From the IMG/VR virus record IMGVR_UViG_2600254985_000007: 28,904 bases of DNA, one strand, 5' to 3'. Origin of the DNA: a virus. Taxonomy: Duplodnaviria > Heunggongvirae > Uroviricota > Caudoviricetes. Position numbers and translations under genes: made by a program. This document shows, in pieces, positions 1 to 21,598 of this stretch (position 1 is its first letter; every line of letters begins with the position of its first letter). The notes beneath the pieces are model-generated. The model made no database searches. It was given only the letters and a program-made list of their open reading frames with translations, and was not told the origin of the DNA.

Positions 1-1464
<1,464 letters not shown>

Positions 1465-1495
1465 TTATGAATGATGATGGTTGTAGAAATGCGGA

Positions 1496-1828
1496 TTAAA
1501 CGATGCTGATTGCAGTACCGGCGAACGCGTTACGTTTAATGTTGTCGTCGGTGACGGCAGATGGCCAGAGGACATCTTCAATACGGAAAGAGCCAGATTT
1601 GTAATATGCCAGTTCCGCGCTGTTCTGGTCTGCGGTTACAGCCAGGATGCCCATTGCCGCGCCAGCATGAGCACCATCCCAGACGGTCAGCTTGCCAGAA
1701 GTGGCATCCAGCATGAGCGGCGTCATGGCTGGAGTGGAAGCCGTCAGTTCGCCAGGACCATACGCAGTGTGCGCCGGGTCGCTGTTACCGAGCGGCTGGT
1801 TATGTGTGAAAACTTCAGTAATTGCCAT
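1496..1828 (-). CDS. D: head decoration protein, lambda gpD family
   Basis: 110 aa, ending ...FAGTAISIV; matches lambda gpD length and conserved blocks ([23 protein letters not shown]-like). Confidence 0.92.
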
Positions 1829-1837
1829 GATAGCCTC

Positions 1838-3181
1838 TTAAACGGGGGTGTTTAACAAATCGTCAGCGGCATCAGAAGATGCGCTACCTGCTTGGAGTGC
1901 ACCGGGTGCTGTTTCCATCAAACGATCCAGCGCCGTATCGGTACGCATCTGGGCACTTTGCGGTGCAGCAGCCAGAATGCGCTGTGCGCTCTCTACCGTC
2001 ATACCCGGCGTTTCGGCCAGTGCTCGCGCCTGTGACTCACGCCCTTTAGCCTCGTCGCAGTTCAGGATGCCCATGATGCGACTATTCTCTGCAGCTACTG
2101 CTGCAGTAACCTGCGCACTGACATCTACAGGGGCTGCTACGGAAGCAATTGTCGTGTCAACGGTAGTGGCCTGTTCAGCTGATGCAGTTGTCTGAGTTGC
2201 TGCCTGGTCAACTGGCTTAGTGGTCACAGCTGATGCAGAAGGTGATGGCATAGTTCCTCCAAGGGTTGTTTTTTTGCGTCTGTCGAGTGCTTCGCGCATC
2301 ACGCCGAGCGCATCGGTATTGTTAACAAGTTCATCCGCCAGCCCGTTATCCAAAGATTCCTGGCCGGAGAATACTGCCGCTTCGGTGTCCAGCACGTCCT
2401 GAACAGACATGCCGGTATAAGCGGAAACCTTTTCGGCAAACATCTGACGAGTGGCATCGATACGCGTCTGGAAATCAGCACGCACATCTTTCGGAAGCTT
2501 TTCGTAAGGGTTGCCGTCGACCTTGCGATCGCCGCTGTAAATCAGCGTGACCTCAACGCCGTTAGTTTTGAGCGCAGCGCCATAGTTACTGTGCGCCATC
2601 ATGACCCCAATGGAGCCGGTTCTGGCCGTTTGTGTGACCAGCCGTCGCGATGCCGAACTGGCAATAAGCTGACCTGCACTGCAGTTCATGTCATTGGCCA
2701 GCGCCCAGATGGGTTTGATATCGCGCATACGGGCAATAATGTCGGCGCAGTCAAACGCCCCGGACACCATTCCACCCGGCGTATCCATATCCAGAAGAAT
2801 GCCGTCAACGCCGGGGTCACTGATTGCCTGCTGCAGGCGAGCAATGATCCCGTTGTAACCCGTCATCCCGGAATAAGGCTGAAGCGCACGGGTTTTACTG
2901 ACCAGCGTGCCGGAAACCGGCAAGACCGCGATACCATTTGCCACCTGATAGCTGCGTGATGGACGGGGATCCATGTCATCATCCTCACCAAACAGCGCCA
3001 GCGGTTCGGCTATTTGTCCGGCATCAAGCGTGATGCCAGAGACGGTATCTGTCAGCCGGGTGATGCCCAACTGGCCAGCCAGCGCGCAAAAGAAAACCCG
3101 CGCATAGGCGGGTTCAAGCATCAGCGGCTCATTAAAGGCCATACTGGCAATATGCGGAAGATTACGCAGCTCGTGCGCCAT
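1838..3181 (-). CDS. C: head maturation protease/scaffold, lambda gpC family (S49 peptidase); Nu3-like scaffold expected in-frame in the 3' half
   Basis: 447 aa in the lambda C position between B and D; ClpP/S49-like core; Ala/Thr/Gln-rich C-terminal scaffold-like region. Confidence 0.9.
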   Translation of the reverse strand: MAHELRNLPHIASMAFNEPLMLEPAYARVFFCALAGQLGITRLTDTVSGITLDAGQIAEPLALFGEDDDMDPRPSRSYQVANGIAVLPVSGTLVSKTRALQPYSGMTGYNGIIARLQQAISDPGVDGILLDMDTPGGMVSGAFDCADIIARMRDIKPIWALANDMNCSAGQLIASSASRRLVTQTARTGSIGVMMAHSNYGAALKTNGVEVTLIYSGDRKVDGNPYEKLPKDVRADFQTRIDATRQMFAEKVSAYTGMSVQDVLDTEAAVFSGQESLDNGLADELVNNTDALGVMREALDRRKKTTLGGTMPSPSASAVTTKPVDQAATQTTASAEQATTVDTTIASVAAPVDVSAQVTAAVAAENSRIMGILNCDEAKGRESQARALAETPGMTVESAQRILAAAPQSAQMRTDTALDRLMETAPGALQAGSASSDAADDLLNTPV

Positions 3182-4754
3182 CTTGCTCCTCCTCGTTTGA
3201 TTTTTTCACTCCGGCCTCAAAAGCTGCAGCGGCCCATGCCGGTGGTTTCAGACCCGCAGCACGACGCTCCATGGTTTCCCGGACCTGCTGGGCAAAAATC
3301 TCCTGATAATCATCACCGCGTTTGGCGCACTCTTTTTCATACGTGCTGAGACCTGCCTCAATGAGCATGACGGCCTCCTGTACCTCTTTCAGCCCGTCAA
3401 TTGCCATTCGACCAGAGCCAATCCAGTTGGCATTCCCCCAGGCTGTTCTCGCCTCCTGGAAACTGAACCGGGCTTTCGAAGGAAGCGTGACCACGCGGCG
3501 GACAATCGCCTCTTCAAGCCAGCAAAGAAACATCTGACAGGCCTGTCGGGATGCCACAAACTTGCGACGCCCCATAAAGTACGCCCAGGACTCGTTAGCA
3601 CTTGCGCGTGCGGTCGAGTAGCTCATCTGCGAATAGTTTCGCGAAAGCTGCTCATACGACACACCAAGCCCAGCGGCAATATAACGCAGCAGGGACTGTT
3701 CAAAAGTCGAGTAGCCGTTATCGGTATCCTGCGCCGACTGAAGGTTGAGAGAATCACCCGGCAACAGGTGTGGAACCCTTGCCCCACCCAGGCGAACAGG
3801 CGCAGCTGAGTAATAGGACGCCATTTCACCGAGCCAGCCCGTAAGTTTGCTCTGCTGCTCTTTATTATCCGCGCCGAGAATAAAGTCCATCGCCGATTGG
3901 GTATCCAGTTCACTCTCGATGGTAGCGGCATACATAGCCTTCACTATCGCGCTCTGGAGCTGGGTATTTTGCAGGGTATCGAGCATTTTCATCTGCTCCA
4001 TCACGCTGTAAAACGCATTGGCCCCACGGGTCTGTCCATCCTCCATCGGTTCGAATACATGGATAAATGAAGGTCGACCGCCGGGTAGTTCGCGAGGAAT
4101 GTAGGTCCAGTTCTGCGCCATCCAGCCGGGATAACCATCGTCGCTGACGTAATATCCCAGCGCAGCACCGCTATCATTTATTTTCACACCGGCGCGACAG
4201 TTCCGGGTATCACCGATATTATTCGGATTGCTGACGCGCTTCGGACTGACCATTTTGAACTGAGTACGGAAAAGACGCGTTGAATCGCTGTCCCAGGTCG
4301 CCTGCGTGCATAATTCACCGTTAAACGCGTGCATGGCCACACCTTCTCGGATCATCATCGTAAACGTTCGCTTACGCTCGGCATCAATCCCGCAAAAGTC
4401 GTCCTCGGCATACTCGTTCCAGGCGGCTTCTACATCCCGCGAAAATGCGCGTGAATCCTCCTCATTGATGCCAAGATAGCGCCAGCTCGGTCGATAGCTG
4501 AGTCTGAAAAATGACCCGACGATGTGGTCCTGGTGGAGCTGCACGGCGTTTGCCGCATAGCCATTATTTCTGACCAGATCGTCAGCACGGGCATTTCCGC
4601 GCGAGAAGTTAGGCAGAAGAGCCGCATCAGCACTTTCGCTTGGTGGATTCCAGCCCCGCAACTGACCACCAAACCCTCCGCCGCCGCCATGATACCCCGC
4701 GTATTCCCGGAGGGATGTTTTCCCGTCAGGACCCACTAAAGATGGTATTTTCAT
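3162..4754 (-). CDS. B: portal protein, lambda gpB family
   Basis: 530 aa, N-terminus [38 protein letters not shown]... typical of lambda B; overlaps C start as in lambda. Confidence 0.93.
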
Positions 4755-4957
4755 ACGTAAAACCTTGCAGGCCCCTGGCGTCGTGATGTGGTACCAACCT
4801 GAGATTCAAGGTCAGCAATATACTTTTTGAGATCGGTGACTGAGGTAGCTGTAAATTCCACTCTTCGACCGTCTTTCTGTACCGTCGCCACGCGCTTTCC
4901 CATCATCAGGTCATGTAACGCAGCGCGCGCGGCATCCAGTTCAGTCTGTGTTGCCAT
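4751..4957 (-). CDS. W: head-tail joining protein, lambda gpW family
   Basis: 68 aa, [32 protein letters not shown]... matches lambda gpW; ATGA overlap with B. Confidence 0.92.
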
Positions 4958-6879
4958 TATTCCTCTCCAGACAATGCCCGCGCGTAATCCGCCAGGGTCT
5001 TGTTATTGTTACGGGTGCCTTCTTCCTCCAGCAGGCTGGCAAGAAGTGAATCAAGGTTAAGCTGCCAGCGGGATATGCTTATACGCAGCGCCGCCAGTGC
5101 ATAAACAAAGCAATCGAGCGCCTCATTTCGTCGTTTTTTGCTGTCCCAGACGATCTTTTTCTTTCCGTCTACCCATTTTTCCACCTGCTCTTCAGCTGTT
5201 AGTTGTTGGGCCTCTGTTAGATCGTAGATTTCTGGGTTATTCGGGAAATGAACCGCTCCCGCCAGCGGCTCGTCTCTTTGCGCCACCAGCGTGAAACGGT
5301 TATAAATCTGCTCTTTTGCGGTGTCTGTTCCTACCTCTGTGAGGTAAACACCATTCTTGTTACGCTTGCGTGGCATGTTCGCCACCGGCTTTCCATAAAC
5401 CGACGCCCCCTTTATAGGGATCACACGAAACAGACCGTGTTTTTTTGAGCGGTTGTAGACGATGGTGGGGTCAATACCGCCGATATCCCAGCAGATACGG
5501 GATACCGACATTTCCACGCCATTCTTTCGGAGATAGGTTTTGTTAATCGCCTCGTCCACCCTGACGAGGGTCGCTTCATCATCATGACGGCCCATAATGA
5601 TCTGCCGGTCAATCAGCCAGCTTTCCTCACCGGGCCCCCATCCCCAGACGCGCATTTCATATCGATCCAGTTGGGAGTCGATCCCGGCTGTCAGATAAGC
5701 AACACGCTCCGGTACGGATGCCCCGAAGAACTCTTTGCGTTCGGCCATGAGCTCCGCGTCAGGCCGTTCACCAATTTTAGGCTCCCATGTTTCGCCCAGA
5801 GTGGTGTTCACGAAGGTTTTACGCTTTCCTGTATCCCCTTTCGTTTTTAGCCAGTCTTTAACGATCTGAACCCAGGTGGTAAACGGGCTGTATGCCGTCC
5901 AGATGTGAAACGTCACGCTGTCTGGCGGGTCGATTTCGGTGCCTGTTGATGAAAACCAGGATAAACCGTCGCGCGTCCAGATCCCGGTGGTGTCGCAGAT
6001 GTAACGAGCTTCAGTGAAATCCAGCTCCTGCTGCTTAATGACGCAGGCATTATGTTCACACAGGTAAAAGACGCTGGAGGGTTCGCCCGGTGTCCATTTC
6101 AGCCCGAACGGGGTCTCTTTGTCGCCGAATTTAAGGTACTGCTCTTCACCACAGTGCGGACAGGCAACATGAAAACGCATGAAATGCCCGGACTCGCTGG
6201 CAGCACGCTCAATCTGGCAGGTCCCCTTTGTTTTTGGCGTTGAGCCGCGAATAGATTTGGGCCAGACAGACCCCTCAATACGTTTATCACCCAGGAACGT
6301 CGGGGATCCCTCTTTCTCAATATCTTCATCGAATGCCGCCAGTTCATCGTAACCGGCGACATCGACCGATTTCTCACGATAGTTTTTCGCCGCTTTACCA
6401 CCCAGACACCAGAACCCGCGACCGTTGGAGAAGCGTTTCATACTGAGCGTATTGTCCCGGTGCTTTTTTCCATACCAGGGGGCCAGCGCCAGAAGTGACG
6501 GAATATCGCGAATCGTCGGCTCAACATGCGACTTCATAAAGTTTTCGGCGTCACCATCAGTAGGCAGCCAGATAAGGGAATTTCGCTGCTTGTGCTGAAT
6601 AAAATACGCATAAACACCCAGCAACATTTTTGAATAGCCAACACGGGCAGACTTAACAACGTTGACCTCACGTATGTAATCGTTACCCATCGCATTCATG
6701 ATCGCGCGTTGAAACGGCAACGTTTCCCAGCGCCCTTCCTGGTAGGCCGACTCTTTGGGGAGATAGTAATTATCGTCTGCCCATTCAACCGCCGTTTGCG
6801 GCTCAGGTCGGTACAGCGAAAGTAGACCCGCGCGCGCAGAGTGCTGCAGCCCCTTAACCTGACTGTTCGATATATTCAC
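4957..6879 (-). CDS. A: terminase large subunit, lambda gpA family
   Basis: 640 aa with colinear resemblance to lambda gpA (N-terminal [19 protein letters not shown]...). Confidence 0.95.
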
Positions 6880-7399
6880 TCAGCAACCCCGGTATTATTT
6901 CATCCAGCGCAGCTGCTTTGTTCATGGCTTTAATGATGTCCTTCTTGAGGAAATCAATATGTCGGTTTTCCAGCTCCGGGAAGCGCCGCTGAACCGACAG
7001 AGGAACTCCATCAAGAATGCTGGCTACTTCTCCGGCCATCCGCGACAGCACGAACGTGCAGAATGCGGTTTCCACCACCTCAGCGGAATCTTTTGCATTT
7101 TTTAGTTCCTGGGCATCTGCCTGCGCTCGGGTGAGGCGGTGACGCTCATAGTCAATCGTACCAGGCTGAAGGTCGGATTCCGATGCAAGACGAAGGTCTT
7201 CCACCTCCTTCCGTAATTTCTCATTCTCAATCGCCGCGTCGCGTGCGGAATACCATTCGATAGCCGCGGAAGATTCATAGAGGACCTCATTACCTTTTCC
7301 ACCGCCACGTGCTACAGGCATTCCCTGATCCTGCCAGTTCTGAATGGTTCGCACGCTGACCCCAAATATTTCAGAAAGACGCTTTTTGTTGACCTCCAT
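6854..7399 (-). CDS. Nu1: terminase small subunit, lambda Nu1 family
   Basis: 181 aa, MEVNKKRLSEIFGVSVRTIQNWQDQGMPV... matches lambda Nu1 (winged HTH N-terminus); overlaps A start. Confidence 0.95.
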   Translation of the reverse strand: MEVNKKRLSEIFGVSVRTIQNWQDQGMPVARGGGKGNEVLYESSAAIEWYSARDAAIENEKLRKEVEDLRLASESDLQPGTIDYERHRLTRAQADAQELKNAKDSAEVVETAFCTFVLSRMAGEVASILDGVPLSVQRRFPELENRHIDFLKKDIIKAMNKAAALDEIIPGLLSEYIEQSG

Positions 7400-7640
7400 A
7401 GCTCACTCCATACACAAAAACAGAGAAAGGAAACGCCCTCTGGCTATTTAGCCGTTTTTAAGGCTTATCATTTCCTTTCTTTTCAGGGGGTGTTTACAGT
7501 TAAAACAATGAATTAGCGAGAAGAAGAACGGAAACGGCAAATGCCTGAAAATTTTCATAAATAGCGAGAATCTGCGAGGTCGCCGCCCCGTAACAAGGCG
7601 GATCGCCGGAAAGGACCCGCAAATGATAATAATTATCAAT
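7400..7640 (-). other. cos: cos packaging site region; cosN 12-nt cohesive-end sequence at 7577-7588, cosB toward Nu1
   Basis: Minus strand reads GGGCGGCGACCT (lambda cohesive end) followed by a CGC..TCGCTATTTATG block resembling the lambda left end. Located directly upstream of Nu1. Confidence 0.85.
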
Positions 7641-19237: not shown

Positions 19238-19272
19238 TGAGACGTTTTGGTGAAAGCATATAAGGACTGTTG

Positions 19273-20139
19273 ATGGAAAACACTGGCTTACACGATGTTA
19301 ATTTTTCACTTAGATATGACGGTTTGGATGCTGAAAAGCATGAGATTGAACTTTCTTCGCTCGGTGAATCGCTAAAGGGATTTTCGAAGATATTAGCTAC
19401 AGCTGGAACCTTCGCATTAACCCAAAAGTACTCGCGAAGCACCTCAACTCAAGAGGTTAAAATTTACGCTACCGAAGCTAGGGCCAATTGTTTTTCTCTT
19501 GATACTATCATGAATTTTATCAGTCAGTCTCAATTGTTCTCAGGGTCTGCGGGGGCTATACTTGGCGCATTAGTGCCTTATATCTTCGCTAAAAACTCGC
19601 AGAAGAAAGAGGAAATGAAATACCTAAAAGAAGCACTTGAGAAGGCAATTGAGGCCCTCGGAAATAAAGATAAAGATACCATCTCAGGTCTAATCTCAGT
19701 GATTGACAAGATGGCTAGTGAGTTACGCCCATCAGTTAGACAGGCAGTTTCCCCCATCGGTACCACCTGTAATAAGATAAGCGTCACACCGGGGAATGGT
19801 TTCAAGCCTGCTGTAATTGATGAGCAAGATAAAGCAGTAATAGACCAGTTGGACGACGACGAAGTTCTTGGCTTAAGGGAGTATCGAATCTTCCTTACTG
19901 AATTCGACGCTCACCGAATGACCGCTAAAGTCATTATAGAAGGTGATGATTCAGATAAGCGCATCTCAGCACAAATAAGCGATCCATCTGCTTCAAAGGC
20001 AGACAACCCGTATCTCATTTCACTTAGTCGTTTTCTGTCAACGGGTCTAAGTCATGAGTCAGCGGTAAAAGTAACTGCCAAAGCAGCAGTTAGAAAAGGG
20101 GCTATTAGTAAACTTTTCATAGTTGATATTGAGCTTTAA
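19273..20139 (+). CDS. hypothetical protein (288 aa), AT-rich cargo gene in the rexAB position downstream of cI
   Basis: ORF with AAGGA SD 6 nt upstream of ATG 19273 (track start at 19270 is TTG); lower GC than flanking genes; followed by an intrinsic terminator; no recognisable family. Confidence 0.75.
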
Positions 20140-20142
20140 CAA

Positions 20143-20166
20143 CCGGCCACCGCGCCGGGTTTTTTG
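20143..20166 (+). terminator. intrinsic terminator ending the cI-cargo transcript
   Basis: CCGGC-CACCGC-GCCGG hairpin followed by GTTTTTTG, 4 nt after the stop codon. Confidence 0.7.
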
Positions 20167-20169
20167 TGC

Positions 20170-20379
20170 CTACTTCACAGCTTTACTACCCTTCCTGACT
20201 ATCTCAGCTGCATCCCTGTTCACACCCTTACCTATCACGTTTCCCGTTTCCTTCCGGTACCGTTCCAGCTTGTCGATGATGTTTTGCTGGGTCATAGGTA
20301 AATCTGCCAGTGACAACTCCATGACCGCCCGCCCCATGGCGTGAACCATCATGTTCACTCTTTCTTCATCCAAGTCCAT
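20170..20379 (-). CDS. hypothetical small protein (69 aa), divergent from PL and convergent with the rex-position gene
   Basis: Strong SD (AAGGAG-N6-ATG); MDLDEERVNMMVHAMGRAVMELSLADLPMTQQNIIDKLERYRKETGN...; no family recognised. Confidence 0.7.
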   Translation of the reverse strand: MDLDEERVNMMVHAMGRAVMELSLADLPMTQQNIIDKLERYRKETGNVIGKGVNRDAAEIVRKGSKAVK

Positions 20380-20433
20380 TACCCACTCCTTTTTGATGTT
20401 TTTTTCAGCATATCACTTATGCCACCAAAAAAT

Positions 20434-20520
20434 AAATCAACATAAAAATCAACAGTAAACGATTAAATCAACAAAATAAATCCACAAGGTGTTGACCTAC
20501 AAATCCACATGATGTTTAAT
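20434..20520 (+). promoter_or_regulatory. OL operator cluster (five direct AAATC(A/C)ACA repeats) with PL-like promoter TTGACC-N17-TTTAAT (20492-20520)
   Basis: Repeats at 20434, 20446, 20465, 20478, 20501 match those in the cI-cro intergenic region; near-consensus sigma70 promoter reading rightward into the early-left operon. Confidence 0.65.
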
Positions 20521-20560
20521 TACTCCATCGAAACGAAACATCGACAGCTGAGCGAAGTTA

Positions 20561-20592
20561 GCCAGCGGCGGACAGCAAGTCGCCTGCTTTTT
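20561..20592 (+). terminator. imperfect stem-loop with T-tract in the PL leader (candidate early terminator or antitermination-associated structure)
   Basis: GCGGCGGAC...GTCGCCTGC pairing with a bulge, then CTTTTT, about 35-65 nt downstream of the predicted PL start. Confidence 0.4.
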
Positions 20593-20936
20593 AACAACAT
20601 GCAGATTTACAGCGTCAATGACCTGTTAAGACCCCTACACGTAAACGTGCTGTATCACCGGGTGCGATCCGGTCGGTGAGAGAGTATCCCCGCGCGAGAG
20701 CGAGAACGGCGTGAGAACGGGCAACACTGGCAGGGAGTTGGCGCTGACCAATACAGGGAATGTTATGGGATGTGGTGAAGGGTTCATGGACGGGAATATG
20801 TCGCACGTAAAGCGGCGAGGCCCGAGGAGCTATTGCCGAAGATAAGTAGGCCGAATCGGGTCGAAATGGGTCTCCCACCTACCACATCGCCAAAGCATTT
20901 CTCCCGCATCAGCGGGTAACGACAGAGGGTAAGGGG

Positions 20937-21233
20937 ATGATCGACGACATCAAGCGCATCGACTCAATGATAAATGCGCTTCGCAATATGAAACAGGACA
21001 TCAAGCGTCAGCAGAAACTAAGTGAAATAAACAGTTTAGACCTGTCGCCGAAGCAAGCTCAAAAGCGCAATGCCGATGCTGACTGGATTGCGATGGAACA
21101 GATTAAGCGTCGGCATGAGCTGCACGCTCTGTCTGTTGAGCTTGGGTTCGCTGAGCGCCGGGAAAGTTATGCTCCATTTGAATTAACTGACGGGTGGCAC
21201 CGATTCGACCACAAGCCGCGCGAACCTCAATAG
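20937..21233 (+). CDS. hypothetical protein (98 aa), first ORF of the early-left operon
   Basis: ORF with purine-rich SD; basic and charged; no clear Arg-rich N-like motif. Confidence 0.6.
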   Translation: MIDDIKRIDSMINALRNMKQDIKRQQKLSEINSLDLSPKQAQKRNADADWIAMEQIKRRHELHALSVELGFAERRESYAPFELTDGWHRFDHKPREPQ

Positions 21234-21255
21234 CCGCCTAACCAGCGGCTTTTTC
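21232..21255 (+). terminator. intrinsic terminator after the first early-left gene (tL-like)
   Basis: AGCCGC-CTAACCA-GCGGCT hairpin followed by TTTTT. Confidence 0.6.
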
Positions 21256-21388
21256 ATACCTGGAGTCATTTACGAGTGGCTCAAGTTATGACAACCGGCG
21301 GCCATCCACCGACCATTGAAACACTGAATAAATGCGTTGAAGTCTTGTATTAACCGTTCCGTTCGCCGCGATAAGGCCAAGAGGATTT

Positions 21389-21598
21389 ATGAGTGATTTG
21401 GAGTTGGGCTTAAAGATATACGCATTATGGTTTGTCGGGACGTTTCTGCTCGACATAGCAATCAACTCGCTGACGAAAAAAGAACATCGCCAGCCACTTT
21501 CAAAACTAGCCATTGACCATGTACGCATGTCTTCCGCAATAACCATTGTGGGCCTGATTGTGTGCGGTATGGGCTGGTTCTTATTCAAGGTGGTGTGA
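21389..21598 (+). CDS. small predicted membrane protein (69 aa, two hydrophobic helices)
   Basis: Two hydrophobic segments (IYALWFVGTFLLDIAI and AITIVGLIVCGMGWFLF); sits where kil/sieB-type genes lie in lambda. Confidence 0.6.
   Translation: MSDLELGLKIYALWFVGTFLLDIAINSLTKKEHRQPLSKLAIDHVRMSSAITIVGLIVCGMGWFLFKVV

Follow-up and report, generated by a model that had tools for sequence, protein, structure and literature searches.

The leader of the early-left (PL) transcript of phage phi80 was found to combine a small 5′ hairpin, a boxA of the rrn type and a conserved 137-nt folded RNA, and we consider it likely (probability approximately 0.7) that the three parts together form the cis-acting PL antitermination signal that corresponds to phi80 nutL. 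The window (the whole stretch of viral DNA analyzed, 28,904 nt) contains this leader at positions 20521–20936. As we picture it, the small hairpin, the boxA and then the 137-nt RNA, closed by helices P0–P2, would make up a composite nut-type signal. An rrn-type boxA is the binding site of host NusB/NusE, and Nus factors would be loaded onto RNA polymerase by the boxA and the folded domain as these emerge; the first phi80 gene, as the literature annotation has it, would contribute its product as well. The modified polymerase would then pass terminators tL1A and tL1B and transcribe kil, gam, recT, and the remaining operon. Loading of Rho would also be hindered by a leader that is G-rich, C-poor, highly structured, and untranslated; boxA-recruited Nus factors are able to prevent Rho-dependent termination even when N is absent (PMC5725501). 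Both the antitermination activity of the folded domain and its protein partners are things that we infer. An earlier sequence-only reading of this DNA had named an RNA-based element among the possible sources of antitermination, and a large conserved RNA structure was indeed present in the leader, which supports that suggestion as far as antitermination potential is concerned.

Window positions 20100–21300 matched phage phi80 (JX871397/NC_021190) in reverse orientation at 100% identity; identity to the older phi80 records M11919 and X13065 was 99.4–99.8%. In the window, the cI, cro, cII, and kil ORFs coincided exactly with the mapped features of JX871397. Judged by sequence identity, 20521–20936 is thus the leader of the phi80 early-left transcript. 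The JX871397 annotation, mapped to the window, places the OL operators (three CI sites overlapping PL) at 20435–20454, 20479–20497, and 20502–20520, and this annotation and the sequence together give a PL −35 element TTGACC at 20492–20497, a −10 element TTTAAT at 20515–20520, and a start near 20527. The same record marks a "putative nutL boxA" (20585–20593), a "putative nutL core" (20638–20649, identical to hairpin P3 described below), and a coding sequence for "early transcription antiterminator protein N" (20937–21233, plus strand); no nutR is annotated in JX871397. The title of M11919 refers to the "cI immunity region encoding the N gene," and the record marks the N protein, tL1, and a "nutL regulatory signal" at 661–938, which corresponds to window 20548–20825 and includes the whole 137-nt domain. 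In X13065, the 98-aa ORF is likewise named the N gene. The feature lines of these three GenBank records (JX871397, M11919, and X13065) are the basis of the phi80 functional claims used here, including the requirement for N. The nut-type reading is supported by the complete identity to phi80 with its annotated PL, nutL boxA and core, N, and tL1, and by the fact that the M11919 nutL signal covers the entire domain.

The leader extends for approximately 410 nt from the PL start to the first ATG at 20937. Its GC content was 0.50–0.65 over 20550–20950, compared with 0.28–0.35 directly upstream, in agreement with the earlier description of a GC-rich untranslated leader of approximately 400 nt after PL. 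G was more frequent than C, with GC skew reaching +0.45, and this positive skew across the leader is consistent with a nut-type signal. The PL transcript begins with a small palindromic hairpin of approximately 20 nt (20526–20545, CCATCGAAACGAAACATCGA). The same CCATCGAAACGAAACATCGA start was observed in three other leaders (L008:2507-2525, L024, and L138), after which the leaders diverge and continue into either the 137-nt RNA or the put-like RNA of the HK639 type.

A hairpin with a 5-bp stem, GGCGG-ACAGCAAGT-CGCC (20567–20584, plus strand), adjoins the boxA, the stem being followed by TGCTTTTTAA. The boxA itself, TGCTTTTTAACAA (20585–20597, plus strand), is of the rrn type and agrees with the rrn consensus TGCTCTTTAACAA at 12 of 13 bases. 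It was nearly invariant across 27 representative homologs and read exactly TGCTCTTTAACAA in TL-2011c, APSE-2, and others. Because homologous leaders read TGCTCTTTAACAA, GCTCATTAACAA, or GCTATTTAACAA at this position, the conserved feature is the boxA and not a U-run. In approximately 19 of the 27 representatives, a hairpin of unrelated sequence ends 0–3 nt 5′ of the boxA.

The sequence-only reading had taken a stem-loop with a T-tract at 20561–20592 for a real early terminator that stops PL transcripts and had found no boxA. The stem does exist (20567–20584), but its T-tract is the boxA at 20585–20597, annotated as putative nutL boxA in JX871397, so that neither the terminator role nor the lack of a boxA can be upheld. 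The GC-rich 5-bp stem followed by TGCTTTTT does resemble a terminator and was flagged by a lenient scan; however, that scan yielded 9 such sites in the region against 4.2 ± 2.2 expected, the stem is short with a loop of 8–9 nt, and the U-run begins 3 nt past the stem. Relatives with the same layout have an interrupted T-run after the hairpin (GCTCTTTAAC, GCTCATTAAC, and GCTATTTAAC), and the hairpin is therefore not conserved as a terminator. An early terminator at 20567–20584 was thus rejected as highly improbable.

The conserved multi-helix RNA domain occupies 137 nt of the plus strand (20610–20746) and was delimited with RNAalifold, pair counts, and a covariance model. At least 120 IMG/VR contigs were collected with a pattern taken from the best-conserved stretch; they contained 97 distinct variants, from which 27 representatives with <93% identity were selected. 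The structure was derived from RNAalifold and manual inspection of the comparative alignment, the first compensatory changes having been spotted by eye. Downstream of the boxA and a spacer of 12–30 nt (approximately 12 nt in phi80), the elements follow in the order P0, P1, P2, P3, P4, and P5, all on the plus strand. P0 (20610–20618 with 20738–20746), P1 (20622–20627 with 20729–20734), and P2 (CCC with GGG, 20633–20635 with 20719–20721) enclose three hairpins: P3 (20638–20649), P4 with its invariant loop GCGAUCCGG (20655–20679), and P5 with a GAGA loop (20690–20709), which varies in length among homologs, in which the loop is often GAGA. A boxA was located upstream of the domain, at a fixed distance, in all 27 representatives.

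In alignment A3, 93.7% of the cells were paired, compared with 30–43% when the 3′ partners were slid by 1–3 columns, and 16 of the 28 pairs showed compensatory change, with both sides altered. The covariation score was 0.341 vs. 0.166 in shuffled alignments, and none of the 500 shuffles reached the observed value. A covariance analysis across homologs, which the sequence-only reading had proposed as a check, thus gave a clear positive result. The frequent G-U pairs assign the structure to the plus strand, that is, to the PL sense. A protein-coding reading of the leader was rejected: the compensatory changes, the G-U pairs, and the variable-length indels in P5 are unlike coding constraint. The covariance model matched the window once, at 20583–20747 (164 bits, E = 3e-33). 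Strong covariation, a single match per locus, and the invariable presence of an upstream boxA all argue for a nut-type signal. Conversely, the model gave no match to a second copy in the PR operon, which is contained in the window, and this lack of a rightward copy, unlike the situation in nut and put systems, counts against it.

P0 was strong in most types and was formed by different sequences (CAGCGTCAA/TTGGCGCTG, AGCACA/TGTGCT, and CAGCACAT/ATGTGCTG), but duplex energies showed that the APSE and HK225 types lack it, and it is therefore not universal. Duplex energies were used to judge P0 because MAFFT misregisters both P0 and the phi80-type P5. P3 has a stem of 3–4 bp and a loop that differs between homologs (UAAA, AUAAAA, ACAAA, or UUUAAU); such variability is unexpected for a protein-specific boxB and counts against the nut-type reading. 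Invariant nucleotides were found in loops and junctions (GCGAUCCGG, GUUAGC, GYGAA, and CAACAC). Single-sequence folding gave z-scores of −1.6 to −1.9 and mispaired P2, P3, and P5, so the comparative structure was preferred. No Rfam 15 family matched the window at gathering score, and only chance-level matches were obtained for 20380–21400 at E values up to 10.

BLAST searches showed the leader to be a mosaic. The segment 20585–20901 or 20585–20772, beginning exactly at the boxA, was 94–96% identical to many Stx-converting phages; 20394–20734 was 97–99% identical to HK225; and weaker matches (71–80%) to 20621–20735 were found in Klebsiella, Edwardsiella, and Hamiltonella (APSE) phages. The RNA occurred once per phage in >120 viral contigs (one covariance-model match per locus), many of them nearly identical, so that locus counts represent non-independent events. 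It was also present in 224 of 5426 complete E. coli genomes (approximately 4%), where no annotated feature lay under the RNA among the matches listed. In all seven loci inspected for this purpose (phi80, TL-2011c, Edno5, L017, L024, L142, and L145), the RNA came immediately after a promoter-like sequence, which was located downstream of the repressor gene. ENT1, which carries a put-like RNA of the HK639 type, was rejected as a homolog and dropped from the alignment.

Intrinsic terminators followed the RNA in most loci. Within 800 nt downstream, a strict search identified a sense-strand intrinsic terminator in 74 of 111 loci, compared with 5 of 111 for the antisense strand. These terminators had at least 10 different sequences and were located 160–700 nt away. 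In phi80, tL1A (AGCCGC-CTAACCA-GCGGCT followed by TTTTT; 21232–21254, plus strand; detected by the scan and annotated in JX871397) lies directly behind the first gene, as the sequence-only reading had noticed when it placed a second terminator there, and JX871397 annotates the rho-dependent terminator tL1B at 21428–21465 (plus strand). The arrangement matches the PL–nut–tL1 layout across these non-independent loci, and the sense-strand bias together with the position of tL1A supports a nut-type signal.

The first PL gene (20937–21233, plus strand) encodes the 98-aa protein that three GenBank records call N. Its family corresponds to Pfam PF26859, which the sources name "regulator," and is widespread in Enterobacterales. 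The protein did not match Pfam N_peptide (PF25694), whereas the same profile recovered HK97 N (57.8 bits) and the N of L139 (62.8 bits), and BLASTP against HK97 N revealed no similarity (E = 0.42). Disorder and an N-terminal Arg-rich motif are traits of lambda N. No Arg-rich window was found in phi80 N, and no Arg-rich N-like ORF was found in the leader or in the whole window. The AlphaFold2 model (pLDDT 90.5) predicts an antiparallel helical hairpin and a beta hairpin; a Foldseek search with this model against the PDB returned no significant match (best E = 0.6). The non-significant matches include the RNA-polymerase secondary-channel factors DksA2 and Gfh1, but these are generic helical hairpins and provide a hint only. 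By motif, profile, and predicted fold, phi80 N is not a lambda-type N. The earlier statement that no recognizable N gene is present was therefore correct for a lambda-type Arg-rich N and incorrect in that the first gene is the annotated phi80 N. That this protein is unlike any N, with no Arg-rich motif and a predicted folded structure, counts against a nut-type signal.

The boxA and the folded RNA could instead act autonomously, with host RNA polymerase and the Nus complex only, like HK022 put or rrn leaders; phi80 "N" would then be an unrelated early regulator, so named because it is the first ORF. We regard this as a possible but distinctly less probable explanation, and equally tentative is the broader proposal that boxA plus the 137-nt junction RNA ranks with N/nut and put as a third class of early antiterminator in phages, one in which the nascent RNA and the host Nus complex would render RNA polymerase resistant to termination with no need for a phage protein. 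As judged from their distribution, the RNA and the phi80 N family appear to be largely uncoupled. They occurred together in only 7 of 120 RNA-bearing loci, essentially phi80 itself, and phi80 N homologs were mostly found without the 137-nt RNA; this mutual independence counts against the nut-type reading as well. Homologs of phi80 N were observed in four other settings. In L138, the homolog follows a put-like RNA of the HK639 type; in L139, it is immediately downstream of a true N_peptide gene; in L140 and L141, a different Arg-rich protein and a terminator come before it; and in phages of non-lambdoid genera (Kagunavirus, Caminolopintovirus, and Feofaniavirus) and in Morganella phage Mecenats66, it sits in small-gene arrays and has no leader. 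The RNA had no universal protein partner, the most common being Kil (61 of 120 loci), and was far better conserved than any downstream gene. The first gene after the RNA varied by locus and included a 70-aa basic protein in HK225, a Rha-like regulator in Oslovirus Stx2a phages, and a 3-codon mini-ORF in some loci. In the Stx2a Oslovirus TL-2011c, the RNA is followed by a strong terminator (L006:7318-7339) and the first PL gene begins at 7505, yet a tblastn search of the first 50 kb of the 60.5-kb genome, where all early genes lie, detected neither an N_peptide or phi80 N gene nor any other N-like gene. In Edno5 (L014) and L047, a classical nutR, consisting of boxA and GCGCC-GAUACA-GGCGC, is located on the minus strand between cro and cII, with boxA starting at 735 and 6909, respectively, but the PL operon, in which the 137-nt RNA stands alone, has no such boxB; Edno5-type phages encode an Arg-rich N in the leftward operon. 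On the other side, the name N is given to the 98-aa ORF in M11919, X13065, and JX871397, presumably on the strength of functional assays, and in three Xenorhabdus prophages (L142, L143, and L145), a phi80 N homolog again lies downstream of the RNA. Moreover, N-like proteins directly follow the RNA in several loci, being either Arg-rich and 51–56 aa long (L017 and L024) or "TAR"-tailed and devoid of an Arg-rich motif (L117 and L142), and a factor may be encoded elsewhere. Thus, the annotation calls for phi80 N, whereas the comparative data favor a mechanism that would use host factors only or be promiscuous.

Other explanations concern the first gene or the next terminator. The folded leader might mainly govern the first gene through RNase III processing, mRNA stability, or Nus/boxA translational repression, which we regard as unlikely for the 137-nt domain. 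The lambda N leader and suhB are precedents for control of this kind, and the lambda N leader is processed by RNase III. In the second half of the phi80 leader, folding and BLAST identified a long imperfect hairpin (20756–20901, plus strand), of which 20766–20895 shared approximately 91% identity with the DNA that separates boxB from the N start codon in HK97 and 933W-type phages; in HK97, the homologous hairpin lies between a P22-type boxB (GCGCUGACAAAGCGC) and the N start codon. A small hairpin, CCCGC-ATCA-GCGGG (20903–20916, plus strand), precedes the ribosome-binding site and is shared with HK639, where it is located upstream of HK639_44. As with the RNase III hairpin of the lambda N leader, the nut region is upstream of 20756–20901 and the ribosome-binding site of the first gene downstream of it; the two hairpins have no detectable sequence similarity, and RNase III processing of the phi80 hairpin is predicted by analogy. 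By this analogy, the 20756–20901 hairpin probably controls processing or translation of the first gene. The occurrence of this hairpin in the HK97 and 933W N leaders, directly upstream of unrelated first genes, would fit a role of the whole leader in first-gene control, as would the long interrupted helix formed by P0–P2. The lambda N leader is highly structured, and translational repression through boxA and Nus factors is known (PMC5725501). However, in many loci the 137-nt domain is followed by differing sequences, by a terminator that precedes any gene, or by the 3-codon mini-ORF, so that there is no common regulated gene, and the invariant GCGAUCCGG, GUUAGC, GYGAA, and CAACAC nucleotides exceed what a plain RNase III helix needs. 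Very unlikely, in our view, is a riboswitch-like attenuator in which the domain would sense a ligand or factor and thereby adjust to the state of the cell how much transcription passes the next terminator. The multi-helix junction, its strongly conserved unpaired bases, and the presence of a downstream terminator in most loci would suit such a device. Against it, no alternative pairing joins the domain to the terminators, which are of many unrelated sequences and 160–700 nt distant; the constant partner of the domain is a Nus-factor site, the boxA; and no Rfam family matched.

The antitermination signal proposed here resembles the lambda-type nut sites (lambda, P22, phi21, and HK97/H-19B) in its position just past PL and before the first gene and tL1, in the presence of a boxA (20585–20597), and in a small hairpin with an A-rich loop (P3), annotated as the nutL core. 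It differs in that the phi80 boxA is rrn-like, whereas the lambda boxA is degenerate, and in that the phi80 "boxB" is one arm of a 137-nt domain with a loop that is neither conserved nor GNRA-like. With a variable P3 loop embedded in a larger fold, the leader has no lambda-type boxB, as had been noted before. Also unlike lambda-type nut, there is no nutR copy, with a single model match per locus, and the phi80 partner protein lacks an Arg-rich motif, falls outside N_peptide, is predicted to be folded, and is evolutionarily uncoupled from the RNA.

At approximately 70 nt, put RNA folds into two stem-loops; it lacks a boxA and comes in an L and an R copy (PMC9378689). The phi80 RNA is like HK022 putL/putR and the HK639 put-like element in being a folded RNA at the start of an early operon in phages without a recognizable N, and the PL transcripts of phi80 and HK639 have approximately their first 45 nt in common. 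HK022 put acts without a phage protein and is blocked by mutations in the beta-prime zinc-binding domain; for the phi80 RNA, comparative hints suggest that it may likewise act without a phage protein. Unlike put, the phi80 RNA is a 137-nt junction present in single copy with a boxA 5′ of the fold, and the covariance model had no match in the put-like leaders of HK639, ENT1, and L138. An HK022 put-like element, which the sequence-only reading had put forward, is therefore not what the leader contains: by size, fold, copy number, and boxA, the RNA falls outside the put family.

In the rrn antiterminator leader (boxB hairpin, boxA, and boxC), the hairpin precedes the boxA. The phi80 leader has the same order, with a hairpin directly 5′ of a boxA that agrees at 12 of 13 bases with the consensus, and the downstream RNA is untranslated and structured. 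The APSE-type sequence TGCTCTTTAACAATTTA is one that we take to match the E. coli rrn leader. By eye, no GU-rich boxC-like element was found after the boxA, where the spacers read ATGCAGATTTACAGCGTCAA or AGCAAAGTCGGAACAGCACA. Unlike the rrn leader, the phi80 element includes a three-hairpin junction and is placed in phage early operons upstream of intrinsic terminators.

The locus itself is already known, and its boxA and P3 were previously flagged as putative. Keyword and sequence-string literature searches found no description of the 137-nt RNA or of phi80 nutL; in the sources searched, the larger fold and its family appear to be undescribed, as does the independence of the fold from phi80 N. 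If the proposed signal is correct, then phi80 nutL would be a large RNA fold supported by covariation and not a boxA–boxB pair. Among the carriers of the RNA are Stx2a-converting phages in which an N gene is lacking although a terminator stands before the first early-left gene. How lambdoid phages without N pass their early terminators becomes testable, as does the question of whether phi80 N is an antiterminator at all. Should the RNA represent a third class, it would be used by N-less lambdoid phages, including Stx2a phages of the O104:H4/Oslovirus type, and phi80 "N" would be an early regulator that had been given the wrong role. Being compact, the element is also a candidate part for the engineering of processive transcription.

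Several minor observations were made in the same loci. The TAR-tailed proteins, encoded by L142:2757-2993 and by an L117 ORF that starts approximately 359 nt past the RNA domain, end in ...RKSSTVTARG or ...GGITARA, which resembles the C-terminal ...AG(H/Y)RK..(L/V)TAR of HK97-type N proteins; from this resemblance, they may be variants of N whose RNA-binding part is different. The 3-codon mini-ORF (MKH*; ATG AAG CAC TAA) lies approximately 30 nt past the RNA domain in L026, L124, and approximately 15 other loci, is preceded by a strong Shine-Dalgarno sequence (AGAGGAG), and is reminiscent of the lambda bar minigenes. Another conserved non-coding motif of the early-left region consists of a duplicated CTTGACTGTGGAA (Edno5 and L143), after which GGAAAGCG..GCGCGCCGGGCGYGGATAAAYAYCCCGGCA follows (Edno5 and HK639), upstream of N-like or phi80 N genes; its sites are at approximately 3010–3110 in L014 (Edno5), L143:2895-2960, and, in HK639, L008:3040-3110.

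Coordinate arithmetic against JX871397 showed that the window crosses the phi80 cos junction between 1–7576 and 7577 onward, and it therefore represents a prophage or a circular/concatemeric form rather than the map of the linear virion. The minus strand contains, between OL and the terminator of gene 40A, a 69-aa ORF (20170–20379) that is unannotated in JX871397, divergent from the OL/PL region, and conserved (phrog_3975, E = 7e-35); HK225_042 in HK225 and HK639_46 in HK639 are apparent counterparts by size and position only. Gene 40A (19270–20139, plus strand) lies behind cI, in the position of lambda rexAB. It matched Pfam DUF7946 (E = 4e-62) and DUF7947 (E = 1e-20) and not the "acetate kinase superfamily" given in the record, and it may be an exclusion or defense gene.
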